Below are positions 12,795 through 45,800 of a DNA stretch of 64,000 nt, in pieces (the stretch's first letter is position 1; each line of letters opens with the position of its first letter). The stretch is taken from NCBI GenBank assembly GCA_041650915.1, contig JBAZKE010000003.1, positions 21,226-85,225 on the forward strand. Reading direction: 5' to 3'. The notes under the pieces were generated by a model, which saw only the letters and a list, made by a program, of their open reading frames with translations, had not been told where the DNA came from and searched no databases. The translations under genes and the position numbers were made by a program. The stretch comes from Patescibacteria group bacterium. Lineage in GTDB: Bacteria; Patescibacteriota; Patescibacteriia; UBA10025; JAHIVO01.

Positions 12795-13220
12795 ATGCAG
12801 CAGTTCGTAGTGCCACAGTTCCTCGACGTCGAGAGTAAAATTATCGGTCCGCTGACCGTGCGCCAGTTTGTGACGTTTCTCATCGGCGCCGGGATGATTT
12901 TTCTCGTCTTTAAGCTGGCGAGCTTTTGGGTCGCCGCTATTGAAGGGCTGTTGATTTTTGCGCTGACCGGCATGTTTGCTTTCTTAAAAATTAACGGTCG
13001 CCCGTTCCACTTTTTTCTGCTGAACATGATGCAGACGCTCCGGCGGCCGACACTCAAAGTATGGAATAAAGCGTATGTAGGTCAGCGCATCAAGGAAGAA
13101 AAGCCCGAGGCGTTGCCTCCCCAGGTACCAAAGAAGCGCCTCACCGTTTCCCGGCTCAATGAACTGTCGCTCGTCGTTGATACCGGCGGCGCATACCAAG
13201 AAGAAATCGATGAGGGATAA
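12795..13220 (+). CDS. PrgI/VirB3-like small membrane protein of a conjugative-type T4SS.
   Basis: The N-terminus MQQFVVPQFLDVESKIIGPLTVRQF matches the conserved PrgI-family motif F.D.E.KI.GPLT.RQF, followed by two TM helices. It lies directly upstream of VirB4. Confidence 0.65.
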   Translation: MQQFVVPQFLDVESKIIGPLTVRQFVTFLIGAGMIFLVFKLASFWVAAIEGLLIFALTGMFAFLKINGRPFHFFLLNMMQTLRRPTLKVWNKAYVGQRIKEEKPEALPPQVPKKRLTVSRLNELSLVVDTGGAYQEEIDEG

Positions 13221-13237
13221 TATTCCCTGTAGCACGT

Positions 13238-13924
13238 ATGGCTGAGAAAAAAGAAACCATCGCAAAAAAAGCGTCAGTAATCTCAACACAGCAGTACCTC
13301 GATATTCTCGAAGTACGCGACGATGCGATTATTCTCCGTGACGGCACCTTGCGCGGGATTATTCTCGTTTCCTCGATCAACTTTGCGCTCAAGTCAGAGG
13401 ATGAACAGAATGCCGTTATCAGCGGGTACGTCCAGTTTTTAAATTCACTCGACTTTCCACTCCAGATACTCATACAATCACGCAAGCTCAACATTGACGA
13501 GTATCTCGATCGCCTCAAGCTGATTGAGAAAGAGCAAACGAACGAGCTGCTGAAAACGCAAACGCGCGAGTACCGGCAGTACATCGCAGAGCTTGTCCAG
13601 CTGGCAGATATCATGACGAAACGTTTCTTTCTCGTGGTGCCGTACTCTGTCGGCTCGATCAAGTCGAAGGGTTTCCTTGCCCGTATGCGCGAGGCGCTCT
13701 CACCCTCGACGGTGATCACCATCAAGCAGAAGAAGTTTGAGAAGCACCGGACAGAGCTTTGGAAGCGCATGGAATACGTGATTGACGGGCTCAGTTCGTT
13801 CGGGCTCAACGGCAAGGCGCTCGATACGCAGGGGCTTATCGAAGTGTTCTATAATACCTACAATCCGGATACGTACGACCAGCAGGAGCTCGTTGACGTC
13901 GGTAAATTAAACCTTGAGCAGTAA
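13238..13924 (+). CDS. VirB4/TraC-family conjugal ATPase, N-terminal fragment (228 aa).
   Basis: ILRDGTLRGIILVSSINFALKSEDEQNAVISGYVQFLNSL is the typical N-terminal domain of CagE/TrbE/VirB4 proteins. It ends with TAA at 13922-13924, 2 nt before the next ATG. Confidence 0.6.
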   Translation: MAEKKETIAKKASVISTQQYLDILEVRDDAIILRDGTLRGIILVSSINFALKSEDEQNAVISGYVQFLNSLDFPLQILIQSRKLNIDEYLDRLKLIEKEQTNELLKTQTREYRQYIAELVQLADIMTKRFFLVVPYSVGSIKSKGFLARMREALSPSTVITIKQKKFEKHRTELWKRMEYVIDGLSSFGLNGKALDTQGLIEVFYNTYNPDTYDQQELVDVGKLNLEQ

Positions 13925-13926
13925 CC

Positions 13927-15807
13927 ATGGTAGAGTTATTTAGAAAAACTAAGTCGCTGCCGACTGAAACCCAGCCGCAGCTCACGAGGGAGGAGCAGGA
14001 ACAGCTCGCCCGTGAGCAGCTCGAAGAGAAGAAGACGATTCTCGAATCAGAGAAGGTATACCGCCGTGGAGTCGTAACGGTCAGGGACCTCATCGCCCCC
14101 GCCGCGATGAAGATCGAATCCCGTTTCCTCGAGCTGGGGTCGAAATTCGTCCGCACGATTTTCGTAGTCGCGTATCCGCGCTACATTCGAGTCGGCTGGT
14201 TCGCGCCGATAATCAACCTCAACGTACCGCTCGATATCTCGATGTTTTTCTATCCGGTCGGCTCAGAAATAATCTTGAAGCAACTTCGGAACAAGACCGG
14301 CGCGCTCGAGGCGCAGATACTCGCCGATGCCGAGAAGGGCGCGCCCCGCGATCCGATCCGGGAAACGGCGCTCCGTGATATTGAGAAGCTGCGCGACGAC
14401 CTGACGCAAGGCATTGAGCGGTTCTTCCAGTTTGCGCTCTATGTGACTATCTACGCTGACGACAAGGAGAGCCTCGATAAGATCAGCGAAAAGGTTGAGT
14501 CTCTATTCGGTTCGCGGCTCGTGTATACGAAGCGCGTCTTTTACCAAGCAGAGCAGGGCTTTAACTCGACGTTGCCGCTCGCGAACGATGAGCTCGGCAT
14601 CGGCTTCAATATGAGCTCTTCACCGTGCGCTTCTTCATTCCCGTTCATCTCGTCTGAGCTGACTTCGGATGACGGCATACTGTACGGCATCAACCGGCAC
14701 AACAATAGCCTGATCCTCTTCGATCGTTTTTCGCTGCAGAATGCGAACGCAGTTGTTTTTGCAACATCCGGCGCCGGCAAGAGCTACGCCGTGAAGCTCG
14801 AAATTCTCAGGAGCATGATGCTCGGCACCGACGTGATCGTCATCGATCCCGAAATGGAGTATAAGTACCTCTCGGATGCTGTCGGCGGAACCTATATAAG
14901 CATTTCGTTGAGTTCGGAGAGCAACATCAACCTTTTCGACCTTCCCCGCCCGACCAGAAAGGATGAGAAGACGAGCGATATCATACGGTCGGCGGTCATC
15001 ACCATCAAAGGCCAGCTGAGGCTTATGCTCGGCGAGTTTACGCACGAAGAGGACTCGGTCATCGACCGCGCGCTCATCGAAACGTACGCAAAAAAAGATA
15101 TTACCGCCGATGCGGACCTCGCACACGCCGAGCCGCCGCTCCTGTCGGACTTCCAGGAAGTGCTCGAGGGCATGGTAGGCGCTGAGCAGCTTGTGACGCG
15201 CCTCAAGAAGTACACCGAAGGAACGTTCGCCGGCCTTCTCAACAATCCGACCAACGTCGAGCTCTCCAACCAGCTCGTCGTATTCTCGGTGCGGGACCTC
15301 GAGGACGAGCTGAAGCCGATCGGCATCTCGCTCATCGTGTCCTACGTGTGGAATACGGTACGCTCCGAGCTTAAGAAGCGCATCATGGTCATCGATGAGG
15401 CGTGGTGGCTCATGCAGCAGGAGGAGTCCGCTAAGTTTATTTACGCGCTCGTCAAGCGGTGCCGCAAGTACTACCTCGGCGTAACGACGATCACGCAGGA
15501 CGTCAACGATTTCCTGCAATCCCCCTACGGCCAGGCGATCGTCACCAACTCGGCGATCCAGCTCCTCATGAAGCAGTCCGAAGCTGCCATTGATCTGATT
15601 GTCAAGACGTTCCTCCTCACCGAAGGGGAGAAGTACCTTTTGCTCGAGTGCGGCGTCGGCGAGGGAATATTTTTCGCCGGCTCAAAGCACGCAGCCATAA
15701 AAATTGTCGCATCGTATACCGAAGACCAGATTATCACCTCTGACCCGCGCCAGCTGCTGGAAATCGAGGCGGCAAAAAAAGAATTTAATGAGGCAGTCGA
15801 GGAGTAG
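13927..15807 (+). CDS. virB4: VirB4/TrbE/CagE-family T4SS ATPase, C-terminal ATPase part (626 aa).
   Basis: Walker A FATSGAGKSYAVK, Walker B-like MVIDEAWWLM, VirB4-typical motifs and size. It is in a different frame from the N-terminal fragment. Confidence 0.75.
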   Translation: MVELFRKTKSLPTETQPQLTREEQEQLAREQLEEKKTILESEKVYRRGVVTVRDLIAPAAMKIESRFLELGSKFVRTIFVVAYPRYIRVGWFAPIINLNVPLDISMFFYPVGSEIILKQLRNKTGALEAQILADAEKGAPRDPIRETALRDIEKLRDDLTQGIERFFQFALYVTIYADDKESLDKISEKVESLFGSRLVYTKRVFYQAEQGFNSTLPLANDELGIGFNMSSSPCASSFPFISSELTSDDGILYGINRHNNSLILFDRFSLQNANAVVFATSGAGKSYAVKLEILRSMMLGTDVIVIDPEMEYKYLSDAVGGTYISISLSSESNINLFDLPRPTRKDEKTSDIIRSAVITIKGQLRLMLGEFTHEEDSVIDRALIETYAKKDITADADLAHAEPPLLSDFQEVLEGMVGAEQLVTRLKKYTEGTFAGLLNNPTNVELSNQLVVFSVRDLEDELKPIGISLIVSYVWNTVRSELKKRIMVIDEAWWLMQQEESAKFIYALVKRCRKYYLGVTTITQDVNDFLQSPYGQAIVTNSAIQLLMKQSEAAIDLIVKTFLLTEGEKYLLLECGVGEGIFFAGSKHAAIKIVASYTEDQIITSDPRQLLEIEAAKKEFNEAVEE

Positions 15808-15862
15808 CGGCATTTGCGCAAGGCGCCCCCGATGGCATACAATATACTAATATAACGCTCGT

Positions 15863-16468
15863 ATGGAACAGCAAAAAAAGAAGGCAATCTATATATGGGT
15901 AATGGTCGGAATCGTGGTAATTCTGATTGGCGTTGTCATGTGGATCCAATTTTTCCGCGAAGCGCCGGTTGACACAGTCCCCGCCGTTAACCAGCCGACG
16001 AATACCATTGCCGCCAATGTTACCGTCGTGAACGCAACCGAAGAGCCTGCCCCTGCCGATGAGGAGATCGACGCCGTGGAGACAGAGGAGCTGACCGTCA
16101 CGAGGCTCGCGATCCTCTTCGCGGAGCGGTTCGGAAGCTACTCGACCGACGCTGCGTATGAGAATATATCCAACCTTAAGGGGTACATGACGGCGTCGAT
16201 GCAAAATTGGGCTGACCAGTACGTCGCCGACCAGCGCGAGCTGGAAGCGGATTCGTATTTCGCGATCGTGACAAAAGCGCGGTCGACGAAGGTGGTTTCC
16301 CTCAGTGACGATGCGGCTTCCGTCGCAGTGACGGCGCAGCGTACTCCAGATGAGCTGAGCGGGCTGAACAGCCCGTTCATCCAGACGATAGTTATTGGCC
16401 TGTCACACGACGGAGAAGCGTGGCTCGTAGAGAGCGCCGTATGGCAGGACCAGGATCTCGGAGAGTAA
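15863..16468 (+). CDS. Membrane-anchored small protein. It is a possible VirB8-like component: a single N-terminal TM plus a ~150-aa globular domain.
   Basis: TM WVMVGIVVILIGVVMWIQFF followed by a soluble domain. Position between VirB4 and the pilin-like gene. No diagnostic motif, so the function call is positional. Confidence 0.4.
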   Translation: MEQQKKKAIYIWVMVGIVVILIGVVMWIQFFREAPVDTVPAVNQPTNTIAANVTVVNATEEPAPADEEIDAVETEELTVTRLAILFAERFGSYSTDAAYENISNLKGYMTASMQNWADQYVADQRELEADSYFAIVTKARSTKVVSLSDDAASVAVTAQRTPDELSGLNSPFIQTIVIGLSHDGEAWLVESAVWQDQDLGE

Positions 16469-16506
16469 GAAAACATCCGGCATTATTTTTTATTGCATAC
16501 CGAACC

Positions 16507-17934
16507 ATGGCACGACAGAAGAACATACTACTATTCGGCGCGCTGCTGGCAGTGATGGCCTGCAGCCTCATACTCGCCTCGCTGCCGCTGCAGGCAGCCG
16601 CCCAAGAGGGCGAGGAGGCGGCTGCTGATGAGTGCGCGTTTGACTGCAATGGGGATTCTGACAGCTACGTCCGGCTCAACATCGTGATCCCCGGCGTCGC
16701 TCCGATGACGCCGTGCGGCTTTCCCGCGGTGAAGAATATGCAGTGCTTCATACGGGGGATGTACATCTACTTCGCGTGGACCGCGGGCATCCTCGCGACG
16801 GCCATGATCATGTTCGGCGGCTTCAAGTATGTCGTTTCGTTCGGCAGCCCGACGAAGGTCGCCGATGCAAAGGATACCATCATCTCAGCCATGATCGGCC
16901 TTGCGCTCCTCCTCGCGTCGTATACGATCCTGTACTTTATCAATCCGAACATCGTTAACCTCAAGGACCTTGATCTGCAGAGCATCGGCGCGCTCAAAGA
17001 GGGCGTTATCTGGTGTGAAGATATCGCGCCGGGTGGGGCACAAGAGCAGTTGCTCGATCCGCAGCTTGATCCGATGGATGCAAATAACCGTCCACGTCCC
17101 ATAGATCTCGGTGAAACGTGGGATACTTCGCAATTGAAGTGCGGGGTTGAGGGATTGATGGTATATACGGACGGCCATGAGCAGCCTTGCGTATACCAGG
17201 GAGCATATAGCGGTGCAGGTTGTCCAGACCAGAATGGATCACAGACAGTGTGTGCGCCTGATTACCTGACCGGCGAAGGGTTTAAGTGCGTGGAGCCCGA
17301 ACGGTACTGCACATTCGCGTTTGCCGGCACGTGCGAGCGGGTTGATGAGGTTTTTCAAACGCAGCCGCAATTTGGGGCGGGCTTATGCGAGGCGAGCAGG
17401 GACGGATCGGGCTGCATTTACCGTGATTCGGATGTGCTCAGTTGTGAGGAAGCGCAGCATGAGAATTACTACCAGGTGTACTGCGATACGGGGAATAACC
17501 TGCAGCGGGGCACCGGGCAGAATACGGACTGCTGGGGCATCGGAGATCCAACGGAACCCGAATACCGCAACGAGCCGGATGAGTCGAGCGTATGGAACGG
17601 CCACACGAGGAAGTGCGTCGACCGGCGGACCGGCGGGTACGACTGGGCGATCTGCTGCCTCGAGCTGTCCAATACCAGCGGGGGTATAGAGTGTCGAAAT
17701 GAGTGCAACAGCGATGAGATCATGGTCGCGAACTGCATCCTGCCGGAACATATCGAAACTCCCGTTATTGAAGACCAGGGTTTGCTCGATGCCTGGGTCA
17801 GAACCATCAGGAATGCAGAAACCGGCAGGATTATTACCGGATGCACGGATGCCCAGCTCAGCCAGAATATGGTGTGCTGCATGGAGATGGAATTTGAATA
17901 TGTAACCAAGCAGGATCCCGAACAGCCCCGATAA
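16507..17934 (+). CDS. T4SS pilin-like (TrbC/VirB2-like) protein with a signal peptide and two hydrophobic helices, fused to a ~330-aa Cys-rich C-terminal extension.
   Basis: In-frame ATG at 16507 gives a signal peptide MARQKNILLFGALLAVMACSLILASLPLQAAAQE. The helices are IYFAWTAGILATAMIMFGGFKYV and TIISAMIGLALLLASYTILYFINPN. The C-terminal extension contains more than 25 Cys. Confidence 0.5.
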   Translation: MARQKNILLFGALLAVMACSLILASLPLQAAAQEGEEAAADECAFDCNGDSDSYVRLNIVIPGVAPMTPCGFPAVKNMQCFIRGMYIYFAWTAGILATAMIMFGGFKYVVSFGSPTKVADAKDTIISAMIGLALLLASYTILYFINPNIVNLKDLDLQSIGALKEGVIWCEDIAPGGAQEQLLDPQLDPMDANNRPRPIDLGETWDTSQLKCGVEGLMVYTDGHEQPCVYQGAYSGAGCPDQNGSQTVCAPDYLTGEGFKCVEPERYCTFAFAGTCERVDEVFQTQPQFGAGLCEASRDGSGCIYRDSDVLSCEEAQHENYYQVYCDTGNNLQRGTGQNTDCWGIGDPTEPEYRNEPDESSVWNGHTRKCVDRRTGGYDWAICCLELSNTSGGIECRNECNSDEIMVANCILPEHIETPVIEDQGLLDAWVRTIRNAETGRIITGCTDAQLSQNMVCCMEMEFEYVTKQDPEQPR

Positions 17935-23810: not shown

Positions 23811-23838
23811 CAAAAAAGACCCCATGCATATTGGGGGT
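23811..23838 (-). terminator. Rho-independent-like terminator on the minus strand, downstream of the tRNA at 24023-24094.
   Basis: Minus-strand reading ACCCC-aatatgcat-GGGGT followed by CTTTTTTG. Confidence 0.4.
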
Positions 23839-24022
23839 GCCGGCGTTTTTTCGTATACGTGCCTTGTGTTTGTAAGCGGTGCAGGTAGGAATCGGTCACG
23901 AGTCGCGCTCCGCGCGCTCTCGACCCCGCCTCGCGCCACCTTCGGTGGCATGCTCCGGCTTTCGATTCCTGGCGCTCCGCAAGCAGTTGCGGAGCTCCTC
24001 GTTCAGATTCACTGCGTTCATC

Positions 24023-24094
24023 TGCCCTCGGCAGGAATCGAACCTGCATTTCAGGCTCCGCAAGCTTGCGTCCTATCCGTTGAACGACGAGGGC
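24023..24094 (-). tRNA. tRNA of 72 nt with no encoded CCA. The anticodon loop reads UUGCGGA, so the tentative call is tRNA-Arg(GCG) with G37.
   Basis: Acceptor stem GCCCTCG/CGAGGGC, D-arm GTTC/GGAC with a GG loop, T-arm GCAGG-TTCGATT-CCTGC, discriminator A. The anticodon stem has one A.C mismatch. Confidence 0.6.
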
Positions 24095-24643: not shown

Positions 24644-24837
24644 ATATCGTAGGTATTAACTTGTTATGTGGTCCCGGAGAGTGCCTCTATAGTATACAGA
24701 AAAACAGGAAAAAATTCACGTTTGGTCACTCATCGATTTCCTGACGGAAATCTAGGTCGATTCCGCCTCGCGGTGTTCGTTTTCCGCCAGGGGCGGTGGA
24801 AATTCTCGCTGGGACGCTCCAGGCTTTCTCTTTTTTA

Positions 24838-25285
24838 CGCTCCTTCGTTCACGTTGTTCACTTCGGAGGCGGAGGGATTCCGCTCCGCGCCGGGGCTCGC
24901 GGCTACTCCATTGCATTCCGCAGCATCGCTCGCCCTTCTCATCCCTACGCTCCACACGCAGGTGTGGAGCTCCGCTCCTTCGTTCACGTTGTTCACTTCG
25001 GAGGCGGAGGGATTCCGCTCCGCGCCTGGGCTCGCGGCTACTCCATTGCATTCCGCAGCATCGCTCGCCCTTCTCATCCCTACGCTCCACACGCAGGTGT
25101 GGAGCTCCGCTCCTTCGTTCACGTTGTTCACTTCGGAGGCGGAGGGATTCCGCTCCGCGCCTGGGCTCGTGGCTACTCCATTGCATTCCGCAGCATCGCT
25201 CGCCCTTCTCATCCCTACGCTCCACACGCAGGTGTGGAGCTCCGCTCCTTCGTTCACGTTGTTCACTTCGGAGGCGGAGGGATTC
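24838..25285. repeat. Tandem direct repeat of 3.3 units of 135 bp in the tRNA-Ser(TGA) trailer. Each unit begins with a copy of the last 16 nt of the tRNA.
   Basis: Units 24838-24972, 24973-25107 and 25108-25242 differ by 1-2 SNPs. A partial unit 25243-25285 overlaps the genuine tRNA 3' end. The shared motif is cttcGGAGGCGGAGGGATTC. Confidence 0.85.
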
Positions 25286-25355
25286 GAACCCCCGAGACCT
25301 TTGCGGGTCTAACGGTTTTCAAGACCGTCCCATTCAACCGCTCTGGCACGCCTCC
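25269..25355 (-). tRNA. tRNA-Ser(TGA), type II with a long variable arm, no encoded CCA.
   Basis: GGAGGCG acceptor, anticodon loop CUUGAAA, variable stem AGACC/GGTCT, T-arm GGGGG-TTCGAAT-CCCTC, discriminator G. Confidence 0.85.
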
Positions 25356-25625
25356 ATCTGTGCGAAAGGTACGGTATGTACCGTTCGCTTTTTGAATCAA
25401 ACCGCAGCATAAGTTGTAGTGCGGCCCATTTTTTATTAATGTATTGGTGGAGAGGGCGAGATTCGGTCACAAATAAATTTCCTGACGAAAATTTTTTACG
25501 ACCCCGCCTCGCGGCGCTCGCCTCCCCTCGGCAGGCTCGGGGAACTCGCGCATCGCTGCGGCTTTCTCATCTCGATGTCCCACAAGCAGTTGCGGGACTC
25601 CCTTCCTCATTCACTAACGTTCATT

Positions 25626-25716
25626 CGGAGAGGGCGAGATTCGAACTCGCGAAGGGGTTTTAAGGCCCCTTAACGGTTTAGCAAACCGCTGCCTTCAGCC
25701 ACTCGGCCACCTCTCC
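25626..25716 (-). tRNA. tRNA-Ser(GCT), type II, no encoded CCA.
   Basis: GGAGAGG acceptor, anticodon loop UUGCUAA, long variable arm AAGGGGCCTTAAAACCCCTTC, T-arm GCGAG-TTCGAAT-CTCGC, discriminator G. Confidence 0.85.
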
Positions 25717-36100: not shown

Positions 36101-36337
36101 GGCAGCTCATGGGCCGAACTGCCGCTGTCGATCACTCCTGATATCAATGAGCTGTCTGCCGTCACAATAGGGCCGGACGGCACCATATATCTCGGCGGTT
36201 CCCGATCATCAAGCATGGTCGTGCGGAGCAGCGGATTCGGTGCCGGTACGTACAGCTGTCCCGACGGCCACTTCATTAAGGATGTTCAGCGTAACTATGC
36301 AGGCGAAGTCATCCGGATTGAGTGCAGGGCACTCTAG
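33191..36337 (+). CDS. Large secreted protein (1048 aa). Signal peptide, Gly/Tyr-rich repeats, FDGxxxW beta-propeller repeats, six BNR/Asp-box repeats, and a C-terminal Cys motif.
   Basis: Asp-boxes STDRGDTW, SADDGQTW, TNNGGTTW, TADGGTTW, SVDGGSTW, ALDYGSSW. Repeats YDGTNLWLADG, FDGDYLWIL, FDGTYVWAA. CENDADCAGG. C-terminus CPDGHFIKDVQRNYAGEVIRIECRAL. Confidence 0.75.
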   Translation: MQTGWHKQQLVLKWAILGLFFCAISIVVFGTESTSATTLDPSGPPPEDNTTGFIDIGNEYQIKTGALRLGTDDRSAPFNYQLEVVGDGAEISNVVAENNLGVGQYDGRTCENDADCAGGMAMYCSYGKCRYDSLYVDSERDVVCFGPCLNASGSRVEVSGSGMHVENDAGYGMYATSSSDTAVYGSGTTYGVQGISSGSNNYGIWAINTIGTALEGTSTGVPYPAYSSVAGISTTGWGIYATNTNASGLWSGYFEGRVGSTRNVVGSKLVTTKPGVSLTPFTSAQELAEYGISSDGLRYYDGTNLWLADGNTLIKVRASDGFLLLRTALSGAPTDVIFDQEALWVTVSDGTVLRLDPVTGTAVCSLDLAAVAAPVGPLSNPLGIVYVKQREMNISRGQGTTYQHYWVTATGSAGAGAIVELTYEKRSGACAFVAGSAQEIVSASTSIGKMAFDGDYLWILAQDSVSREGYLVSVHASDGEAALFPDIVGSEPTDIVFDNSFLWVTNSLDDTLSRISLAGSHVCSIKDGYLWRSCSANLECAAAGLGQCFQVPIPYGLYDTADEPTYVAFDGTYVWAASDTNPTVSQFLAADPADRDDHTLSADANGLLFDGTNVWVSHDAGITKLFSGTGFGAADLGDTLTLQNAGPVVQQPGSISITDSAFIGQSLIADSELTVSDNVWADEQSGDVIRSDEWEIAGQWSGGGVLAVAVTGNGTVLAGDKYNGHIYRSTDRGDTWADTGSYGQWVWGILEAHDGMLYAATGDESGIGAQVYTSADDGQTWQMSTAVFPTAGNHAYECAETYFSSDWWVACGSGFDDYVWRTNNGGTTWIQSAALPGSGSDSPWALFSASDGYLYVASKWNSHVYRTADGGTTWETLADIPGVSGVYDLLEGSDGALYAATGCECATMEGHVFKSVDGGSTWLDVIDVTGDGMNDVYAIIESEPGVFYFTTRAEVAGPSFTAHVYRALDYGSSWAELPLSITPDINELSAVTIGPDGTIYLGGSRSSSMVVRSSGFGAGTYSCPDGHFIKDVQRNYAGEVIRIECRAL

Positions 36338-36341
36338 GCGT

Positions 36342-39300
36342 ATGAAGAAATTATTCCACAATCGAGCGGCAATCGTAGGTCTTACCGGCCTTTGCGTCGG
36401 CATCGGTGCGGTCGTTTTGGTCGTGACCGCGAGCGTGAGCATTGCCCAGGTAACATGGGAAGAACCGACATCCCAGCCGCCGGGCGGCAATAAATACGCG
36501 CCGCTCAATACCGGCCCGGGCGACCAGGCCAAGCAGGGGGGGCTGCTGCTCGACCCTTTCTATAACTATATCGGGCCAATGCCCACCATGAGCTATCCGC
36601 TCGAGGTCAGGGGGCCGCAGAATGTTAGCATATCAAGCCTCGAGGTGCCCTCGGGGCAGGATACCGGGCAACTGACGGTTGATACCGATACGCTGTACGT
36701 TGATGCAGTCAGCCACCGGGTCGGTTTCGGTACGGCCGCGCCGTCATCGCTTGCTGAGGTGAGCGGCGGTTCGCTCGATATCGGGAGCGCCGCTTCGCCC
36801 ATTGCCGCTGATCCGGCGCTCTACGTTGCCAGCCAGTCGGCAGCCGGCTTATACGCAACTTCAACAGCTAGCGGTGCGGTAGCGGCGATCTACGGCGTGA
36901 GCGGCGCGCAGCCTGGCGTATTCGGGTATAACCTCGGGACTGGCGCCGGCATCAGGGCGGACAGCGGTTCTTCGTCAGCGGTTGTCGGCACGACAGATGC
37001 GCCGCTCAGTACGGGGAGTACCGTGCAGGCCGGCGTGTACGCGGTCGGCAAAGGGCTCGGGGCATGGGCCGGTTACTTCGGCCAGCGGGTGTACGGGTCG
37101 GATGCGGTTGTCGGACGCCAGTTCATCGAATCCCAGCCCGCTGAGTCGCAGGTTCCCTATACGCAGACATGGGAAGTTCGGCTATCCTCCGATTCGAAAA
37201 AAATAAATCCCGTGCACCTGCTGTACGCAAACGGATACGTCTGGGTTGCCCAGGAAGACTCGGTCGTGTATGTCGTCAATCCCCTCAATGGGTATTTGGT
37301 AGGGGAGATCGAGCTTTCCGCGGATTTTGAGAATGACCCGGGCCATCCGGTAAACGCCAACCACGGGATCGGAAATATGGTGTACGCAGAGGGTTATATA
37401 TGGGCTCTCGGCGATACGTGGGACGAACCGATCGTATCCCGGTTTACGCCCGATCCGGATATTGCCGGAAGCTCAGTCCGGCAGTTCATCCTCGGCACGG
37501 CCTTCGACGATGACGATGTGCGCGACCTCGTGTACGATGACATCACGCCCGGCGGCCCATTCCTGTGGATAGCGAGCAGTGATGGGCCCGGTGAGGGCGA
37601 CCAGCATTCAATCGTCCGTTTGACTATCAATGAATCAAGCCCGGACTATGGTGATTTTATTGAAGTGCTGGCGCCTGACGCGAGCTGCATTACCCTGGAT
37701 GCCGCACTGTGCACCGATCGGCTCGATAACAACGGTGACGGCACGATCGACCACGGACTGTGTGTGTTCAGTGCACCGATTGATGTTGCGGAGTGCAGTG
37801 TGGCAGGCGGTACATGGACGCCCGGTACGTGCACGGATTCACGGTACGCCGATCAAACGTCTTGTGAGGGCGCACCCGCAGACAAGTACGGGTATGCGCC
37901 CCGGTGGGTGCCGGGAACGTGCAGCACCCCGGTGTGCTCACAGGTTGAGTGTGAAGCTGCCAACCACTGTTCAGGCGGCACGTGGACCGAAGGGTCTGGC
38001 TGCTCGGACGCGAATTGCTTGACGCAGGCAACGTGCGGGCTTGGCTCGGGCTGCGGCGAAACATGGACACCGCTTGAGACAGACTGCAATCCATATACTG
38101 CGACCCCCGGTGCCTCCGTGTATGATCCCGATGCGCCCGATGTGTCTCCGGATACGGACGAACGGCTCATATACCGGCAGCTCGGCGTGCCGTTCGGCAT
38201 TGCGTTTGACGGCACTGACGTATGGACGGTCGGGGGCATGCTCACCTCTGATGCATCTTCGGGAGAAGCAGTCGTAAAAATTAATGCCGCTGACCCTGAA
38301 AATGCCAGTCTTCATGACTACTACTGCATCGGGCCGGCACGTGATGCGCGGGATATCACGTACGATAGCGGCAATGACCAGCTCTGGATAGGGCAAGCGC
38401 CGTCCTGGCACAAGCCTGGCACCTTTCATGGCTTGAGCCGGTTTGATATGGCAGCGGGAAAAATTGCGGAGACATACCTGAATTCGGTTTACGGTTTTGG
38501 CGTCAATATAAATAAGGTAGAGTATGACGACATCTCAGCCGGCGGCCCCTGGGTATGGGCAGCTGCTGCGTACAATGCACCGCTCAACAAGTTCCATATC
38601 AACGATGAAGAAATAAAACACCAGTTTATTCCTCCCGGAGGCATCCCGGATTTTTCGATTGACCGTGAAACCGCAGGCGGCCCGTACGCGTGGTCGTCGC
38701 TGTACTATGCGAGTGCCGTCGGCAGAAGCCTGGTCAATGAGCCCTATACGACCGTGGTATATACGCCCAAGGGGGTCGGCAGGGAGGATATTGCGTTCGA
38801 CGGGGAATTTATCTGGACGGCAAACGGGTACGCCCAGTCAATCAGCAAGTACCGCTCAAGCGACAGCGAAAAGGTTGCAGACTACGGCGGGTTTCCGAGT
38901 GACGTGCAGCATATAATGTACGACGGTTCATACTTGTGGGCAGTCATATCGGGCGGCAGCCCGCTTGCCAAGGTCGATCCGCGGACAGGTAATATTATTG
39001 AAATATTCACGTACGCAGGCGAGCATCAGGTCGGGTGGGATTGGGCTTTTGACGGCACCAATCTCTGGCTCTCCCTCGAGCACAAGAATATGGTTCAGCG
39101 CATCGATCTCACGTCGTGCAGCGCCGGCACGTGCGGCGTCACGCAGTATGCAAATATTTTTCAGCCGTACGAGCTTGAGTTTGACGGAACCTACGTCTGG
39201 ATTACCCACACCAGCCAAGCCTCGAGTGACGTCAGCCTGAGCGATAGCCTGACGCGCATCAGGGTTTCTGACGGTGCGGTTGAAGGCCCGTTCATCGTGC

Positions 39301-40559
39301 TCGATGACGAGCACGGGGGCAATATCACCGCGCTCGAGTACGACGGAACCTACCTGTGGATCGGCACCAGTATCGCGGATTACTACGGCAACAGCGTTTT
39401 TAAACTCGATATTGAGCGTTGCGGGGAGGCGCCTGATTACGTTGATGCATGCCCGGTCGCAGGTCGGTATAAAATTTACCACGATTCCGGCGTATGCTCA
39501 GTGAGCAAGACGTACTGCACGGCATCTAACGACTGCCCGGCAACGGAGTACTGCAGCAATATCAGGCCGGCCTGTACGTACGGTGATAAGACGGATGTTG
39601 TGTATTCGAGAGTTGATCAGATGCTCTTTGACGGAATGAACATGTGGGTCACGAATATGACACCGACCGATTGCAGCTCATTACGGGAGTGCAGCACGGA
39701 TAATTCGTACGACGAGGACGGTGACGGCCTCACGGGGAATAGTGATCCGAACTGCGAGCGTACGTATGATGCGGTTTCCTATGACCACCACGAGCGGAGC
39801 ATCTGCGATGACGGGATTGATAACGATAATGACGGCACGTGCGACTGGAACGGATGCGGCGGATTGCCGGCTGACAGCGAGTGCGTCGTTGCCGGCTACC
39901 CGAATGACCTGCAGCTTGATACCGAGGGTGCGTCGCTGTTTACTGACGGCAAGGGGCTGCTCGAGTGCAGGGACGGGCTCGACAATGACGGCAATGGCTT
40001 GTGCGACTGGGACGGCGCGGCCGGCTCGCCCGGGTGCAGCGGCAAGCCTGATCCGGGATGCGATGTGCCGAATGACGCGAGCGAAGCAGCGCGGCCTAAT
40101 GACGCACATCTCACGAAGATCAACGCGGCTACCGACGAGGTTGTCGAGAGTATCCTCTATGGGGCGTACTGCAGTTCGAGCGGGCTGGCGTACGATGGCA
40201 CGGATCTTTGGATCGCGAACTACGCGTGCGAATCTGGTTATGAGTACAGCGCAGCCGCGTACTACACCCTTTATCAGTATTATTCCGGTAATGGGCGGGG
40301 AGTCACGGATATTATAAGTTCCGTTAACCTATCGGGAATTGATGCTGCTGATCCGCAGCAGGGGGATATTGCACTCGGCGGCAGCGCTACGTTTGGCGGA
40401 TCTTTGTATGTAAACGGTGATATCGTCGTGCCGGGAAATACGTGGGCGGGGACTGCCGACCATGATCAGGCATTCGGTGACGGATGCGCCGAAGGTGAAT
40501 TTGTAAAGGGGATCGATTTGACAGCCGGCAGCGAGTCGCTCCAGTGCCGGCCACTATAA
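36342..40559 (+). CDS. Large anchored or secreted paralog (1405 aa), Cys-rich, with FDGTxxW repeats and the C-terminal Cys motif.
   Basis: ATG at 36342, 4 nt after the upstream stop. Its N-terminal module, Gly/Tyr-rich repeats and FDGxxxW beta-propeller repeats match 33191..36337. C-terminus CAEGEFVKGIDLTAGSESLQCRPL. Confidence 0.75.
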   Translation: MKKLFHNRAAIVGLTGLCVGIGAVVLVVTASVSIAQVTWEEPTSQPPGGNKYAPLNTGPGDQAKQGGLLLDPFYNYIGPMPTMSYPLEVRGPQNVSISSLEVPSGQDTGQLTVDTDTLYVDAVSHRVGFGTAAPSSLAEVSGGSLDIGSAASPIAADPALYVASQSAAGLYATSTASGAVAAIYGVSGAQPGVFGYNLGTGAGIRADSGSSSAVVGTTDAPLSTGSTVQAGVYAVGKGLGAWAGYFGQRVYGSDAVVGRQFIESQPAESQVPYTQTWEVRLSSDSKKINPVHLLYANGYVWVAQEDSVVYVVNPLNGYLVGEIELSADFENDPGHPVNANHGIGNMVYAEGYIWALGDTWDEPIVSRFTPDPDIAGSSVRQFILGTAFDDDDVRDLVYDDITPGGPFLWIASSDGPGEGDQHSIVRLTINESSPDYGDFIEVLAPDASCITLDAALCTDRLDNNGDGTIDHGLCVFSAPIDVAECSVAGGTWTPGTCTDSRYADQTSCEGAPADKYGYAPRWVPGTCSTPVCSQVECEAANHCSGGTWTEGSGCSDANCLTQATCGLGSGCGETWTPLETDCNPYTATPGASVYDPDAPDVSPDTDERLIYRQLGVPFGIAFDGTDVWTVGGMLTSDASSGEAVVKINAADPENASLHDYYCIGPARDARDITYDSGNDQLWIGQAPSWHKPGTFHGLSRFDMAAGKIAETYLNSVYGFGVNINKVEYDDISAGGPWVWAAAAYNAPLNKFHINDEEIKHQFIPPGGIPDFSIDRETAGGPYAWSSLYYASAVGRSLVNEPYTTVVYTPKGVGREDIAFDGEFIWTANGYAQSISKYRSSDSEKVADYGGFPSDVQHIMYDGSYLWAVISGGSPLAKVDPRTGNIIEIFTYAGEHQVGWDWAFDGTNLWLSLEHKNMVQRIDLTSCSAGTCGVTQYANIFQPYELEFDGTYVWITHTSQASSDVSLSDSLTRIRVSDGAVEGPFIVLDDEHGGNITALEYDGTYLWIGTSIADYYGNSVFKLDIERCGEAPDYVDACPVAGRYKIYHDSGVCSVSKTYCTASNDCPATEYCSNIRPACTYGDKTDVVYSRVDQMLFDGMNMWVTNMTPTDCSSLRECSTDNSYDEDGDGLTGNSDPNCERTYDAVSYDHHERSICDDGIDNDNDGTCDWNGCGGLPADSECVVAGYPNDLQLDTEGASLFTDGKGLLECRDGLDNDGNGLCDWDGAAGSPGCSGKPDPGCDVPNDASEAARPNDAHLTKINAATDEVVESILYGAYCSSSGLAYDGTDLWIANYACESGYEYSAAAYYTLYQYYSGNGRGVTDIISSVNLSGIDAADPQQGDIALGGSATFGGSLYVNGDIVVPGNTWAGTADHDQAFGDGCAEGEFVKGIDLTAGSESLQCRPL

Positions 40560-40572: not shown

Positions 40573-42801
40573 GTGAAACGATTTTTACTCACAATAAAAA
40601 AAGCCCGTAAATGCGCAATCCTGTGCGTCGGCATTGCCATAGCTGTTTCGTGCGCAGCGGGTGGCCGCGTTGCTACGGCTGAGTGGATTGAACCTGACGA
40701 TGCTCCTCCTGAGGGAACTTTTTACGCGCCGATAACGCAGGGATCGGAGAACCAGGCGAAGAAGGGGTATGTGAAGCTCGATCCGCGATATACGCCAACA
40801 GATGATTACTCCCTCACGTACCGCATCAATAAGCCGCTCGAGGTAGCGGGCATCGGTGCGAAGTTTTCTACACCGGACGTATTCGCGAATTTGCTCTACG
40901 TCGATACGGACACCCTGTACGCCGATTCATTCTCAAACTGGACCGGGATTAATACCGATGTGCAGCTGCACGGGGTACAGCTCGAGGTTGCCGACGGGAC
41001 CGTGACAGCCACCCATGATAACGGTCCGGCCGTCCGCGGTTACAGCGGCACCGGCGCCGGAATCTACGGCAGCGGAGGAGCGGCTGGCATCGCCGGGGTG
41101 TACGGCCTCCGCGCTTCGAACGACGGCTGGGCAGTCTACGGCGAGAGCGAGGGTAACGTCGGGGTGCGCGGCGAGAGCGAAGCGGGCGCTGGCATCTATG
41201 CGACGACGAATTCGGATACGATGGCCGCCGTGTACGCGCGCAATGACAATACAGGCTGGGCAGCGTACTTCGACGGGAAGCTCGGCGCGGGATCCGATGT
41301 GATCACGAACCAGTTTTATCCGACGACGACGCGGCAATCGCTGCTGCCGTATACCTCTGGGCAGAAGGTTGCGGAGTATACGTACGGCGCTGACTGGAGC
41401 GATCCGGTCAACGCGATTCTCGCTTTTGACGGGACGTACGTCTGGGCGGCTACAAAAGGCAGGGATGAGAATACGAATAACCTCTTCAAGATCCGCGCTG
41501 CTGACGGCCAGACGATGGATGCATGGCGCCTTGATAGCATCTACTCGGCGGAGGCGATGGCATTTGACGGGCGTTACTTATGGCTGTACGGGCACTGGAA
41601 CAGGCTCGCCCGTTTCGATACCGTGACGAATGCGGTTCTGTACAGCGAGCTCGTCCCGATGGGGGCGCAGGATGTCATTTCGGTGCTCGTGACGTACTCA
41701 GGAGGCGAGGAGTACATCTGGGTTCCCGACTGGGGCAATAACCAGATTTTCAGGTTCAACGCGAGTACGTTCAGTACCGTAGCGCCGGAGGCATTCCTGT
41801 TTACCGATACGGCGGTGATTCCCGCGGGCAGCCTTCCTTTTTCCGAACCGGCCGGCTCGACGTACGACGGTGAGTATATCTGGATCGCCGGGTACGCAAC
41901 CGGTACCGTTGCACGCATCTGGGCGGAAAATCCGAAAGACTCAGGCCATCCCGGCATGGTCATCGATACGACGACGAGCGCCTACAACTGCGCGGTCCGG
42001 AAGGTTGTCTTTGACGGCGAGTACGTGTGGTGCCTGCAGGGGAATACCCTGTCGTACCTCGTGCGTATCTGGGCGGAAGACCCGTACGATCCCCGCCATC
42101 CGATCCGGCAATTTGGTCCCCTCATGGGAGGGGCGAAGGGCGCTGTTTTTGACGGCACCTACCTCTGGGTCGTGAACCACCTTCCAGGCACGAACGGGCT
42201 CTACCGCTTCCTTGCAGCCGATCCGGCGCAGTACGAACGTGTCGATAGCACGATCCGTAGCGAGTACCTCGTCTTTGACGGCACGTTCATCTGGGTTATC
42301 GATGAGACGACCGGCACGCTCGAAAAATTCTACAGCGGAGCGGGTACAGGCGCGGTGTACCAGAATAATATGGTGGCGCTGCAGACTTACTCGGGGCAGT
42401 GCAACGCTGATAGTTCGTACAGGTGCATGACCGATGCCGATTGCGTCCAGGTCGGAGGCACGTGCAATGTGCAGATGTACGCGCAGCAGGGTGAGGTGCA
42501 CATATCCGGCAGCGCCGAGTTCAATGACGCCCACTGCTTTGATTCCTGGCAGAACCGGCACTACTATGACCGGGCGTGCACGGCAGATGCTGAGTGCGGC
42601 GGCGCGGGGTGGTACTGCATCGGCGGTGACGTAACGGCCGGCGCAGACGTGGATGCGGACGGCAACGTGTGGGGCGGCAGCGATGATGCACGCGCAGTGC
42701 CGTCCGGCGGTTCGGCCGAGTGCAGCGACGGCCAGTTTATTAAGGGCATAACGCTTGACGGGGACAGCGAGATTACCGCGATAATCTGCAGGCAATTGTA
42801 A
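40573..42801 (+). CDS. Paralog (742 aa) of the same family.
   Basis: Signal peptide. The N-terminal module AEWIEPDDAPPEGTFYAPITQGSENQAKKGYVKLDP aligns with TWEEPTSQPPGGNKYAPLNTGPGDQAKQGGLLLDP of the previous gene. CMTDADCVQVGGTC. C-terminus CSDGQFIKGITLDGDSEITAIICRQL. Confidence 0.75.
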   Translation: MKRFLLTIKKARKCAILCVGIAIAVSCAAGGRVATAEWIEPDDAPPEGTFYAPITQGSENQAKKGYVKLDPRYTPTDDYSLTYRINKPLEVAGIGAKFSTPDVFANLLYVDTDTLYADSFSNWTGINTDVQLHGVQLEVADGTVTATHDNGPAVRGYSGTGAGIYGSGGAAGIAGVYGLRASNDGWAVYGESEGNVGVRGESEAGAGIYATTNSDTMAAVYARNDNTGWAAYFDGKLGAGSDVITNQFYPTTTRQSLLPYTSGQKVAEYTYGADWSDPVNAILAFDGTYVWAATKGRDENTNNLFKIRAADGQTMDAWRLDSIYSAEAMAFDGRYLWLYGHWNRLARFDTVTNAVLYSELVPMGAQDVISVLVTYSGGEEYIWVPDWGNNQIFRFNASTFSTVAPEAFLFTDTAVIPAGSLPFSEPAGSTYDGEYIWIAGYATGTVARIWAENPKDSGHPGMVIDTTTSAYNCAVRKVVFDGEYVWCLQGNTLSYLVRIWAEDPYDPRHPIRQFGPLMGGAKGAVFDGTYLWVVNHLPGTNGLYRFLAADPAQYERVDSTIRSEYLVFDGTFIWVIDETTGTLEKFYSGAGTGAVYQNNMVALQTYSGQCNADSSYRCMTDADCVQVGGTCNVQMYAQQGEVHISGSAEFNDAHCFDSWQNRHYYDRACTADAECGGAGWYCIGGDVTAGADVDADGNVWGGSDDARAVPSGGSAECSDGQFIKGITLDGDSEITAIICRQL

Positions 42802-42804
42802 TGT

Positions 42805-45800
42805 ATGCCAAAGGCGACTAAAAATTTACTCTTCATCCTTACCATCGCCACTGCGGCTGCGGTGCTCGGCGGCGGGCTGCTCTGGCTCGGGTATGCGCTC
42901 GTGCGCGAGCCTGCCGGCTCAGTGCCCGTCGCGGTCGCGGAAGACCCCGAGACGCTCATGGATGAGCAGGCCGAGCAGGGGGCGATCAACTATACGCATG
43001 CGGATAACGGAGACGGCACCTCGACGATGACGTTCTCGCTTTTTGATACGCAGTACCTGGCCGACGATGGCGCGTACGCGCCCATCAGTACGGAGGTCCT
43101 GGAATCAGCGGGCGACTACGCGTTTGAGAATACCGAGAACATATTCAAGACGCACTTCCGCGGGAGCGCTGCCGTGGACAGCGCCGTCGAATTCGCGATC
43201 GGCGAGCGGTCGGTGGGCATCAGCTTCGTCGGCGCCAGCGAATCCGCGCCCGTCGCAGCGGGAAACACGGTCACGTACCCGGGCGTGTATGGCGGCATGG
43301 ACGCCCGGTACACGCTCCTCCCGGAGCAGCTCCTCGAAGAGCTCATCGTGACCGAGCAGGTAGAGGTCAGCCGCATCAGCCAGAAGCTTATCCTGAGCAA
43401 CGTGTACTACAAAGAGCAGCCGGACGGTTCGCTCACTTTCCATGATGCAGACACCAGGCGGATCGTGTGGTATACACCGGCTCCGGTCATGTATGAGATT
43501 CCGACCGAGGAAAACAGCGAGGCGGGCTCGAGCTCCGCCCTCCACTACGAGGTGGAAGAGGTTGAAGGCGGCTTTATCGTGCACAAGGTGATCGATGCTG
43601 AGGGTATCGAGTGGCTCAAGGCTGCTTCGTACCCGCTCGTGATCGACGGAACATTTACCCGTGACACCTGGCCAACCTCGTCGGGCTCAATGTATGGGGA
43701 GATTGCGTGGGAGGATCCGTTGTGGACGGTCGACCCTGGAGGCAGAAGTTTTTGGACAGAGGGTTACAATTGGGAGCAGATGGCGTACGTTACCTTCCTG
43801 CAGGACGGGACGATCGAGCGCCGGGCATACTTAGTGTTTGATACGAAGAGGCTGCCGGATTCGATATGGCCGATACAAGCAACGCTCCAGGTGCGCAACC
43901 TTCAAAATAATTTTTACGGAGAAACGTGGCGTGATGACGAGTATTACATGGGCGCTTTCGCATGCCAGTACGGGTGGTACGTCCTCGGCTCCGACGATTG
44001 GGAAGGGTGCAAACGCTTGACAAGTGACATTACTAATGAGGATGACGACAGCGTTGAGCTCGTGGATAACTGGCCTAGTCATGCGTGGCATACGTTTAAC
44101 CTCAATCCGGAATCAATCGGTGCGGATGTATGGACCAACGTCGTGCTCGATACGTACCGCGTCGGAAATCTTGACGACAATAATTACGAGCGCAGTATGG
44201 TAGTCGGCGTCGGCCCGAATGCCGGCCCGACTTCCGGGCCCGACATGTGGGCGTATGCGCCAATACTGACGGTCACGTACAAAGGCCCGCCCCCGCCGCC
44301 AAACCACTTTGAGATCACCGGCAATACGCAGACGAGCGTTGCGCTCGAGTGGCAGGATGAGAGCACGACCGAAGACGGGTGGATCATCCAGTACGGCCCC
44401 ACTGCAGCCGGGCCGTGGACAGACCTGTGCCATCCGCATACGGGCAGCGGTTCTATCCCGAGCACGGGCGTTTGCGTCGACTTCAGCTCGGATTGGGACT
44501 GCGATATAGAGGTAACGAAGGCGGGGAGCGGCGACGATACGCCAGCTGACCCGGACGACTATATGTGCCGCCTGACGCACACCCCCCTTTCGCCGAATAC
44601 GCACTACTACTACCGGATCGTGACGTACGAGCCTGCACCTTTTGGCGAGAACGGCGCTGTGTTCTCGTCGGTCAACCGCAGGAGCGTCACCACCTCGCAT
44701 CTCAATGCGAGTGGCGAGCTGTACATCGGCGGTTCACGGTTGGCGAATGGCGAGACGCACGGTGCGCTCGAGCGGCGCCGGTCCATAAACGGGCGACTCG
44801 ACCGCACGTTTGCCAACCTGCAGGGCGATGTGGCGTGCTGCGACACGGCAGGGTGTGCGGGATATGTTGATTCCGGACAGGGATGGATTCTCTTCAACTG
44901 GGATACTTTTTGGAGCTTCAATACGATTCTCGACATTCCGAGCGGCGCCGGCTCAATACAGCCCGATCTGTACGCGCTCGGCGGCGCACACTGGGATTAC
45001 GATAAGCTCATGCGTTTTGACACCATGAATGACCACGAGGGAGAGTGGGAGTGGAAAAACTCAGTGAACTGGGGAGCGTACCAGTCCAAGATGTTTCCCA
45101 TATTGGAGGAAAACACGCTCATCGTAACCGGCGCCCGTGAAAATTATAATGCTTCTTATCCTACTTTGGGCTGCGGCCGGACCGGGTACTGCTGGAAGGT
45201 CAAGGCTCAGCTCATGCTGAAGTCCTGCAGTGCGACGCTCGGGTACCGTTATGACTGGGACTACAGCGCGACAGGCCTTAATGGGGATGGCTACTACAAT
45301 GGCGAGATGTGGGTGCCGGCTGGCCAGAATCTGTACGATAGCGTATCGGACGCGGACTATATGTACCTCGCCGGCACGCCGTATGGCCTGGCGGACGGGT
45401 ATCTCCGGAAGCACGATAAGTACACCGGGTACCTGTGCAACGGGACTGACGCGAACCATTGCGGCATCGGGAACGGGTGGGGCGACGCAGACTCCGGCAC
45501 GATCACGATTCCTGAGAGCAGCGGTATCAGATACCTCGCGATTGATAGTACGAGCCTGTATTTGCTCGGCTCCCGTGACGATGGCATCTCCTGGCAGATT
45601 GAGAAGCGCAGCCTGGCTACGGGTGACCGCGTGACCGCGTTCAGCGGAGATGGCGTCTTTGTCTCTATTATGGGTTCACCTTCACCGTCGGACATCATTG
45701 TCGATAATAACTACCTGTACGTTATCGGCCGAGAACGGCCCTCGAGCATCTACCAGTGGCGCATCGAGAAGTACGACAAGAACACGGGTGACCGCTGCGA

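Follow-up and report, generated by a model that had tools for sequence, protein, structure and literature searches.

The window analysed here is a stretch of 64,000 nucleotides from contig JBAZKE010000003.1 of a Patescibacteria group bacterium, a member of the Candidate Phyla Radiation (CPR). It contains a minus-strand block that encodes, in this order, ClpC, a ComF-like protein (just 44% identical to that of the nearest species representative), tRNA-Ser(GCT), tRNA-Ser(TGA), a tandem array of 135-bp units, a 172-aa membrane protein, tRNA-Arg(GCG) and RecG, followed by RadA on the plus strand. The array, which starts directly behind tRNA-Ser(TGA) and repeats the 3' end of that gene, is the subject of this work. 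On balance, we favour the view that its unit is one of a group of related short modules, structured and non-coding, located in tRNA trailers, and that the array is an unstable tandem amplification of one such module.

A tandem array behind tRNA-Ser(TGA)

An earlier note, made from the sequence alone, had described the array as a tandem repeat of 135 bp with very few differences between units and with the tRNA 3' end present four times, and all three observations were borne out. Tandem Repeats Finder (TRF) delimited it at 24838–25285, with a period of 135, 3.3 copies, 99% matches, no indels and a score of 882, and a repeat search of the window retrieved three in-register copies of 178 nt, spaced 135/135 and 99–100% identical. 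According to ARAGORN and Rfam, the minus-strand tRNA-Ser(TGA) gene has its ends at 25268/9 and 25355/6; it does not encode CCA, its discriminator G being followed by AAGUGAAC. The 16-nt plus-strand sequence GGAGGCGGAGGGATTC, complementary to the part of the tRNA that begins midway through the T-loop and ends with the final acceptor base, is found once in the gene (25270–25285) and once, as what we call the core, in each of the three full units (Table 1). Just two sites, 8 bp apart, vary among these units: the first (24892/25027/25162) reads G/T/T and the second (24900/25035/25170) reads C/C/T. Through these two linked single-nucleotide polymorphisms (SNPs), each unit has its own SNP signature.

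Starting from the gene, copy 1 comprises a leader, the 5' strand of a helix P1, a hairpin H1, the 5' strand of a helix P2, an inner domain (P3/P4) and the core copy. At the far side, the array is joined to a decayed remnant that takes up the DNA as far as the next gene. The remnant has lost its hairpin and distal core and is 75% identical over 59 nt to the 3' (distal) half of the module found behind tRNA-Ser(GCT).

Four open reading frames (ORFs) of 143–214 aa span the array (e.g., 24668–25312 on the plus strand and 24835–25266 on the minus strand). They stay open because the unit of 135 bp corresponds to 45 codons without stops. One of them meets the Pfam cut-off for DUF829 solely by adding up the three repeats. 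We rejected the array as protein coding: the Pfam matches contained no significant single stretch, and in the Ser-GCT module the corresponding frame is soon closed by a stop. False proteins may be annotated by gene callers across arrays of this kind.

Table 1. Features of the tRNA block in the window (window coordinates; R1 and R2 are covariance models of the module; SNPs are given on the plus strand; L001 is a second assembly of the same genome)
Feature	Coordinates	Strand	Evidence and remarks
tRNA-Ser(GCT) gene	25626..25716	-	ARAGORN; Rfam 58.7 bits; no encoded CCA (gene then GAAU)
Single type-B module behind tRNA-Ser(GCT)	25445..25625	-	Repeat search; R1/R2 60-65 bits; fold
tRNA-Ser(TGA) gene	25268..25356	-	ARAGORN; Rfam tRNA 55.5 bits
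Module copy 1, nearest tRNA-Ser(TGA)	25133..25267	-	R2 with filters off 119.3 bits; TRF; core 25135-25150; SNPs T..T
Module copy 2	24996..25132	-	R2 129 bits; core 25000-25015; SNPs T..C; absent from L001
Module copy 3	24861..24993	-	R2 with filters off 119.7 bits; core 24865-24880; SNPs G..C
Partial 0.3 unit: fourth leader and P1 5' strand (AAGUGAACAACGUGAACGAAGGAGCG), joined to the decayed remnant	24838..24863	-	TRF boundaries, sequence
Decayed type-B module remnant	24726..24837	-	Repeat search; sequence comparison
tRNA-Arg(GCG) gene	24023..24094	-	ARAGORN; Rfam 58.6 bits
Type-B-like module behind tRNA-Arg(GCG)	23874..24022	-	R1 44 bits; R2 53 bits, E about 1e-12; fold
Terminator-like hairpin and T-run past the Arg module	23820..23836	-	Consensus match only

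Related modules behind other tRNA genes

All three tRNA genes of the window bear a module, in three copies behind Ser-TGA and in one behind each of Ser-GCT and Arg-GCG. The Ser-GCT module ends in an exact 17-nt copy of the 3' end of its tRNA (25449–25465), located 178 bp downstream of the original and followed by A-CCA (25445–25448), and the sequence between the two 3'-end copies is related to the 135-bp unit. The Arg module shares its leader (GAUGAACGCAGUGAAU) and hairpin loop (AACUGCUU) with the other modules of the window. The R2 search, run with all filters off on both strands of the 64 kb, yielded five matches at E ≤ 1, namely the three array units and the Ser-GCT and Arg trailers. All five lie directly 3' of tRNA genes and on the tRNA strand, and the search placed modules nowhere else in the window. 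A consensus scan of the minus strand between 23500 and 26000 detected a single terminator-like site, the one past the Arg module, and none between the tRNA genes and their modules. This pattern fits one read-through unit, which would extend from the tRNA-Ser genes to 23820..23836.

Beyond the window, about a dozen Patescibacteria genomes that are only distantly related contain members of the family, non-coding modules of 120–180 nt that lie directly 3' of tRNA genes and share their strand. With about 20 modules, drawn from about 12 genomes, our sample is small, and most of the modules were reached by synteny with the window locus; the closer relatives were reached via the 172-aa membrane protein. 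The ComF-like neighbour in the module-bearing relatives is 29–44% identical to that of the window. The block formed by ComF, two tRNA-Ser genes, the membrane protein and tRNA-Arg is kept in this clade, although the two Ser genes vary in how they are ordered and oriented. The pair is inverted with respect to ComF and tRNA-Arg in L006, L008, L009, L013, L014, L017 and L021, and its order is swapped in L005, L012 and L031; L012 has in addition a 678-bp ORF-bearing insert between the two Ser genes.

At this same locus in related genomes, to which the earlier note had pointed, modules recur behind tRNA genes. The same architecture was found behind tRNA-Ser genes with GCT, TGA or GGA anticodons or behind a tRNA that could not be identified (L004, L005, L007, L010, L023, L031, L088, L092, L093, L096, L098), and a copy of the tRNA's own 3' end lies 105–225 bp past the gene in L004 (GCT), L005 (TGA), L007 (both), L010 (both), L031 (TGA) and L023 (GCT). 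In L092 there is one module behind each Ser gene. Two cases are of mixed type: L088 has a type-B module and then a type-A-like one behind Ser-GCT, and L087 a type-C module and then a type-B one. No module was seen in L084 (73% identity), behind Ser-TGA in L087, or in L091, and none of the remaining genomes examined had an Arg module. In L092–L094, a hairpin loop ~80 nt past tRNA-Arg contains the leader-like motif GCGAACGAAGTGAGT, and two such motifs lie behind tRNA-Arg in L086. A pattern scan of metagenomes added one module behind tRNA-Ser(GGA) in an unrelated context (L096) and another behind the unidentified tRNA (L098). A further metagenome match (L097), inside a coding region, was discarded as due to chance.

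The window unit is 71–75% identical to type-A modules elsewhere and only 48% to the Ser-GCT module 200 bp away, which is in turn 78% identical to that of L088. Judged by such identities, module types are common to different genomes. Longer, type-C modules were noted in L005 (5913–6105), L010 (5922–6145 and 6255–6495), L007 (6034–6235) and L087 (120–257). In these, the closing stem repeats the tRNA 3' end, T-loop included, in inverted orientation, imperfectly but without interruption (GGGATTCGAACGGG). The two type-C copies of L010 are nearly identical, and R1 and R2 barely detect this type.

Fold and covariation

On the sense strand, the module begins right past the tRNA discriminator with a single-stranded, purine-rich leader of 18–20 nt (consensus AAUGAACGAAGUGAAUGAG). 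It continues with the P1 5' strand, H1, the P2 5' strand, GAA, P3, AGG, P4 and the tRNA 3'-end copy. The P1 5' strand mimics the 5' strand of the tRNA acceptor, and that of P2 is a copy of the 5' strand of the T-stem. H1 is a 9-bp hairpin, often with a CUGC loop, and the inner domain is three-way, with the helix P3, which is interrupted by a symmetric GA/GA internal loop (GGGC-GA-GCG...CGC-GA-GCCC), and the small hairpin P4. The distal tRNA copy, which starts midway through the T-loop and extends to the discriminator, yields the 3' strand of P2 (3' half of the T-loop plus 3' strand of the T-stem) and that of P1 (acceptor 3' strand).

Single-sequence folds of four divergent members agree on this architecture, and RNAalifold, applied to nine type-A members, recovered the inner portion of P1 together with H1, P3 and P4; 15 of 25 pairs were compensated. 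In 18 modules aligned to model R2, 86.4% of the cells pair, compared with 32–53% when the partners are slid, and the helices pair at 95% (H1), 85% (P2), 84–90% (P3) and 76% (P1), fractions that are inflated since the underlying alignment, A3, was fitted to the model. Changes on both sides affect 24 of the 32 pairs of these modules, and none of 500 shuffles reached the observed values. The acceptor-like helix and the T-stem-like helix that adjoins it contribute four (P1) and three to four (P2) covarying pairs. All members retain the non-Watson-Crick GA/GA internal loop.

The closing helices change with the host tRNA. They are GGGAU/AUCCC and GGAG-CGGA/UCCG(C)CUCC for Ser-TGA, CGAGAU/AUCUCG for Ser-GCT, GUGGGGAUC/GAUCCCCAC for L023 and, for tRNA-Arg, AGGAAUC/GAUUCCU, a 7-bp P2 built on the T-loop/T-stem sequence of that tRNA. 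In L098, GGGAUG in the 5' strand of P1 pairs with CAUCCC at the distal end of the same module and not with the CGGCCC of the gene, which argues that pairing itself is under selection. The tRNA 3'-end copy is the closing strand of a tRNA-like minihelix and not an empty attachment (att) scar, and we regard both the fold of the module and its association with tRNA genes as established. The earlier note had treated the unit as plain trailer, with no element between the repeats. Neither description holds: the sequence belongs to a conserved family of folded non-coding modules, and the 119 nt between cores form a conserved, covarying structure that also exists as a single copy behind other tRNAs in distant genomes.

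These data also bear on another explanation, a neutral minisatellite produced by slippage on an ordinary trailer, with no structure or role for either unit or array. It would account for near-identical head-to-tail units in varying copy number, and the SNP at 25170 does disrupt one P3 pair in copy 1. Against it stand the conservation of the unit, at 71–75% identity, behind further tRNA genes of genomes with protein identities of about 44–55%, and compensatory changes in every helix, and we find it very doubtful. The expansion of the array itself may be neutral.

Searches with known RNA models gave no alternative identity. For the window region and eight module loci, Rfam 15 returned just the tRNAs and sub-threshold overlaps of sX4 and of a plastid untranslated region on tRNAs. 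The modules themselves drew no tRNA match, either at E ≤ 1 in the window or at E ≤ 0.5 in the eight loci, and the same was true of ARAGORN. A degenerate tRNA pseudogene was discarded, as both ARAGORN and the tRNA model miss the modules and their interior has no similarity to tRNA-Ser. We also discarded a hammerhead or other small ribozyme (the GAUGAG of some members is AUUCGA in others, and there is no Rfam match) and the RNA repeats of type III toxin-antitoxin systems (a unit is far longer than such repeats, and elsewhere the 172-aa gene downstream is kept without arrays).

Possible alternatives: integrase scars or recombination cassettes

Integrases that target tRNA genes leave direct repeats of the segment from the T-loop to the 3' end. 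The earlier note had accordingly likened the repeats to attL/attR and named repeated abortive integrations as one possible cause. In this explanation, integrase-mediated integration and excision of a mobile element at tRNA-Ser were repeated or aborted, and the DNA between cores is what is left of att arms. The four copies of the 16-nt core, and the two of the 17-nt core at Ser-GCT, are direct repeats of the kind expected from such integrases (10.1101/2020.12.28.424599); several arrays have CCA at their far end, and true islands exist at the site in two relatives (L084, L095). The module itself speaks against it. Its tRNA 3' copy is base-paired, its interior covaries, and its 5' strands complement the core and track the host tRNA, which att arms leave unexplained. 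None of roughly 20 module-bearing sites has a coding element between its halves, the 119 nt being non-coding here. As the earlier note had stated, no integrase was found nearby: Pfam scans of 29 window ORFs, with four ORFs of 742–4951 aa outside the scan, revealed no recombinase domain. A mobile element carrying attP was not found either, within the reach of exact patterns or blastn-level similarity: three module patterns had no match in IMG/VR, and the array had no blastn match among INPHARED phages or PLSDB plasmids. We thus judge scars of this type quite improbable.

The islands in the two relatives are of a different make. In L095 (= L090), an island of about 4.7 kb (470–5210) encodes a 394-aa large serine recombinase, and no tRNA-Ser is left; its right edge consists of the 3' half of a type-B module, the core and CCA. 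In L084, a 1.3-kb AT-rich island (80–1400) with two small ORFs lies behind tRNA-Ser(TGA)-CCA. Both start with AGA(C/G)AACTAAGTATCGG, and neither has two module halves as its ends.

A second explanation based on DNA is a recombination cassette that folds as single-stranded DNA (ssDNA), such that P1 and P2 rebuild a (bulged) duplex of the tRNA 3' end for a recombinase acting in trans, with the newest copy nearest the gene. It is attractive in that the core recurs, inverted and imperfect, in the closing stems, where single bases are extra-helical and where the inverted copy is contiguous in type C (GGAUGGGUAGGGAUUCGAAC...GAUCCCACCCUCUCC), that mixed arrays have decayed distal members, and that the strand tests described below do not demand RNA. 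To our knowledge, attC sites conserve only structure, not sequence, whereas the interior, leader and junction nucleotides of the module are kept in sequence. Moreover, its orientation is always that of tRNA transcription, no module has cargo, and the 29 scanned ORFs of the window include no integrase or IntI-like gene. We consider such a cassette unlikely.

Copy number of the array

The same genome is represented by a 273-kb contig of the ENA assembly ERZ27247363 (ERZ27247363:k141_1347418; L001/L003). Its flanks are 100% identical to those of the window, and its array is shorter by exactly one 135-bp unit, the middle one (copy 2), giving two full units where the window has three (2.3 vs 3.3 copies). 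A Logan contig of the same organism ends at tRNA-Ser(GCT).

Such disagreement could suggest an assembly artefact, the genome truly having one unit. The unit length is near that of short reads or k-mers, and several related contigs end at this locus (L002, L085, L086, L093, L094). However, both assemblies contain two units with different linked SNP pairs (T..T and G..C), so that at least two copies are real, and the window has T..C in addition. Any k-mer covers both SNP sites, so this third combination must occur in the reads. Two copies are also present in independent lineages: L093, from a different assembly than L092 and with an identical 172-aa protein, has two tandem modules behind Ser-TGA where L092 has one, and L023 has two tandem 119-bp units behind Ser-GCT. 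A single-unit genome is therefore highly improbable. The earlier note's suggestion of slippage or a collapsed assembly is partly right, in so far as a second assembly has two and not three full units. The number in the cell may be two, three or a mixture, and the figure given by the window is not secure. As these independent cases show, instability of copy number is a recurrent property of the module family.

Proposed origin and mechanism

Our best reading is that of a tRNA-mimicking passenger element, which would have entered at the tRNA 3' end and been amplified by unequal recombination. The distribution of CCA is relevant here. None of about 17 gene-proximal ends carries CCA in module-bearing tRNA genes, where the leader begins immediately past the discriminator. 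Distal ends are ACCA or GCCA in the window Ser-GCT module, L004, L031 and L098, and N-CCA is absent from the distal ends of the array units, the Arg module, L092, L023 and the type-C members. Module-free tRNA-Ser genes of the same genomes encode CCA (TGA in L004, GCT in L031). Entry may have occurred by Campbell-type recombination within the shared core, which would place core and leader beside the gene and shift the original end (N-CCA) to the far side; recombination at the core between the gene and a leader-body-core unit thus predicts the CCA pattern that is seen. Insertion at the tRNA 3' end is therefore a plausible origin, as far as these sequences can tell.

Once inserted, even a single module has direct repeats (the core, or core plus leader) on both sides. 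Unequal recombination or slipped mispairing between them could duplicate or delete whole modules, and two copies would then supply 135 bp of homology, making further change easy. The SNP pattern fits three once-identical copies, of which each outer one may later have gained one change, and the two-copy version could derive from one unequal exchange or from assembly collapse. Mixed arrays with decayed farthest members are found in the window, L087 and L088, and agree with the CCA pattern in suggesting entry at the shared core.

As for expression, the module would be co-transcribed with its tRNA and could be excised by tRNA-processing enzymes, RNase Z cutting past each discriminator and RNase P ahead of each P1. 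With excision at such tRNA-like ends, we propose, the tRNA would still mature and the array would be diced into unit-length RNAs. It is possible, and we advance it tentatively, that the modules form a novel tRNA-mimicking class of ~120–180 nt at the 3' ends of Ser, Arg and probably other tRNAs, with a closing strand borrowed from the host tRNA, released by tRNA processing and spread via the shared segment. If so, they might be selfish or domesticated RNAs that hitch-hike on tRNAs, possibly with a role as decoy or acceptor for tRNA-end enzymes.

Several points weigh against our best reading, in addition to the sample size and the fitted alignment already mentioned. The distal ACCA has A73, not the G73 expected of a bacterial tRNA-Ser, and the far end is hence not simply a displaced gene end. 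A core of 16 nt is a poor substrate for homologous recombination, and no recombinase came to light. Transcription and processing of the module are inferred only. The difference between three and two units may stem from assemblers and not from biology. The P1 register (position of the bulge) differs among members, L023 lacks P1, and the TGA modules of L092 and L093 have a degenerate P2. Over all pairs, G-U and A-C cells number 28 and 29, and the sense strand is more stable than the antisense by a mean of only 2.8 kcal/mol (10 of 17; Wilcoxon p = 0.09); a structure of ssDNA, or of the other strand, is compatible with these data. RNA on the tRNA strand is favoured by the invariable orientation, by the retention of the GA/GA loop and junction purines, and by the excess of G-U over A-C outside P1 (25 vs 12 in H1, P2, P3 and P4). 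Between these two possibilities we remain undecided.

Other tRNA-end features in the relatives and other genes of the window

The relatives display other peculiarities at tRNA ends. In L088 (2590–2960), an older tRNA-Ser(TGA) variant is split by a complete, different tRNA-Ser(TGA) (2713–2800) located inside its anticodon stem and flanked by a 13–14-nt inverted repeat (TCCTTAGTAAAGC...GCTTTACTATAGGA). The same locus has short GC-rich hairpin inserts (CCGCCAGAGGCGG) in the anticodon loop after CTTG (position 35/36) and in the T-loop, and similar inserts occur in tRNA-Ser 5' fragments of L031 and L007. In L031 (5823–6138), GC hairpins and then a small GIY-YIG-like ORF separate the first 36 nt of tRNA-Ser(TGA) from the complete tRNA-Ser(TGA) gene; a similar ORF end precedes tRNA-Ser(GCT) in L088, and L087 has a Pfam GIY-YIG gene (5602–5895). 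Finally, a promoter-like TTCAAA-17 nt-TATAAT followed by a mini-hairpin, GGGGCAC...GUGUCCC-G-CCA, was observed in L084 (~1385–1465), L085 (~255–345), L095 (~4985–5130) and L087 (1–65). This mini-hairpin, with a 7-bp acceptor-like stem plus GCCA, is conserved at the nucleotide level, sometimes has an insert in its loop, and may be another tRNA-end mimic.

Elsewhere in the window, a mechanical ORF scan found long plus-strand ORFs at 42805–57660, 33–4595, 36240–40559 and 40573–42801 (4951, 1520, 1439 and 742 aa, respectively). Type IV secretion-like genes lie on the plus strand at 12795–17934 and 57676–61870 (PrgI, a TraG/VirB4-type P-loop ATPase and a type IV secretion pilin), together with a PilM/PilO pilus-assembly pair.

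Significance and comparison with known systems

If real, the module is a conserved, structured, tRNA-linked element that Rfam lacks, and it belongs to a phylum whose genomes are very small and whose RNA biology has hardly been explored by experiment. The module would represent a new mode of tRNA mimicry, the reuse of the neighbouring tRNA's own 3' strand, and would explain why contigs of these organisms frequently break at tRNA-Ser loci. It also serves as a warning that a repeated tRNA 3' end is not always an integrase footprint. The arrays offer a natural system to study how tRNA enzymes handle tRNA-like punctuation and to test for movement of the element.

Our literature searches brought up no account of an element of this kind. 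Closest in subject are the group I introns of Patescibacteria tRNAs, which sit at position 35/36 of the anticodon loop (PMC13011429). We discarded a group I intron for the module: the tRNA genes are complete upstream of it, its 120–180 nt compare with a catalytic core of >200 nt, and no Rfam intron matched.

Among integrative elements, likenesses concern position and stacking. As in genomic islands, in the accretion of integrative and conjugative (ICE) and cis-mobilizable (CIME) elements and in tycheposons, the 3' part of a tRNA is repeated directly, downstream of an intact gene. The T-loop is one known integrase sublocation in tRNA genes, and the module junction, like that of integrase att repeats, lies there. 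In the tycheposons of Prochlorococcus, stacked repeats correspond to successive insertions at one site, with older ones pushed outward and decaying (10.1101/2020.12.28.424599), and module arrays are likewise mixed, with decayed farthest members. Unlike all of them, the module has only 119–165 nt of inter-repeat DNA, non-coding, conserved and paired with the repeat, and the array units are near-identical and in tandem, with no integrase, cargo or free attP copy found.

In integron attC sites and the attP(+) of the CTX phage, a variable centre is enclosed by imperfect inverted repeats with extra-helical bases, a folded stem mimics the duplex target, and cassettes pile up in arrays beside the primary site. 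The module resembles them in its bulged closing stems. It differs in that its interior is conserved in sequence, its units contain no ORFs, no integrase is nearby and the target is a tRNA gene. Miniature inverted-repeat transposable elements and REP-like repeats are comparable in being small, non-coding, structured and patchy, and in that copies within a genome are closer than those between genomes (the two modules of L010 and the two of L092). Unlike them, the module is bound to tRNA 3' ends in one orientation, and its 16–17-nt 'target duplication' is part of the fold; we know of no transposase for it.

Comparable in architecture are tRNA-like structures that tRNA-processing enzymes cut out, such as mascRNA and menRNA (behind MALAT1 and NEAT1), the tRNA-like domain of tmRNA and viral 3' tRNA-like structures. 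In these too an acceptor-like helix stacks on a T-stem-like helix, and the modules share with them the discriminator and, in some members, an encoded CCA. Such structures lie within longer transcripts, where RNase P or RNase Z could set their ends (PMC8457004, PMC9777231); for the module, such processing is a prediction. Unlike these structures, the module is missed by the tRNA covariance model, has neither D arm nor anticodon arm and bears a two-hairpin domain in place of the T-loop; also unlike them, it lies behind a genuine tRNA, copies the 3' strand of that very tRNA and occurs in tandem.

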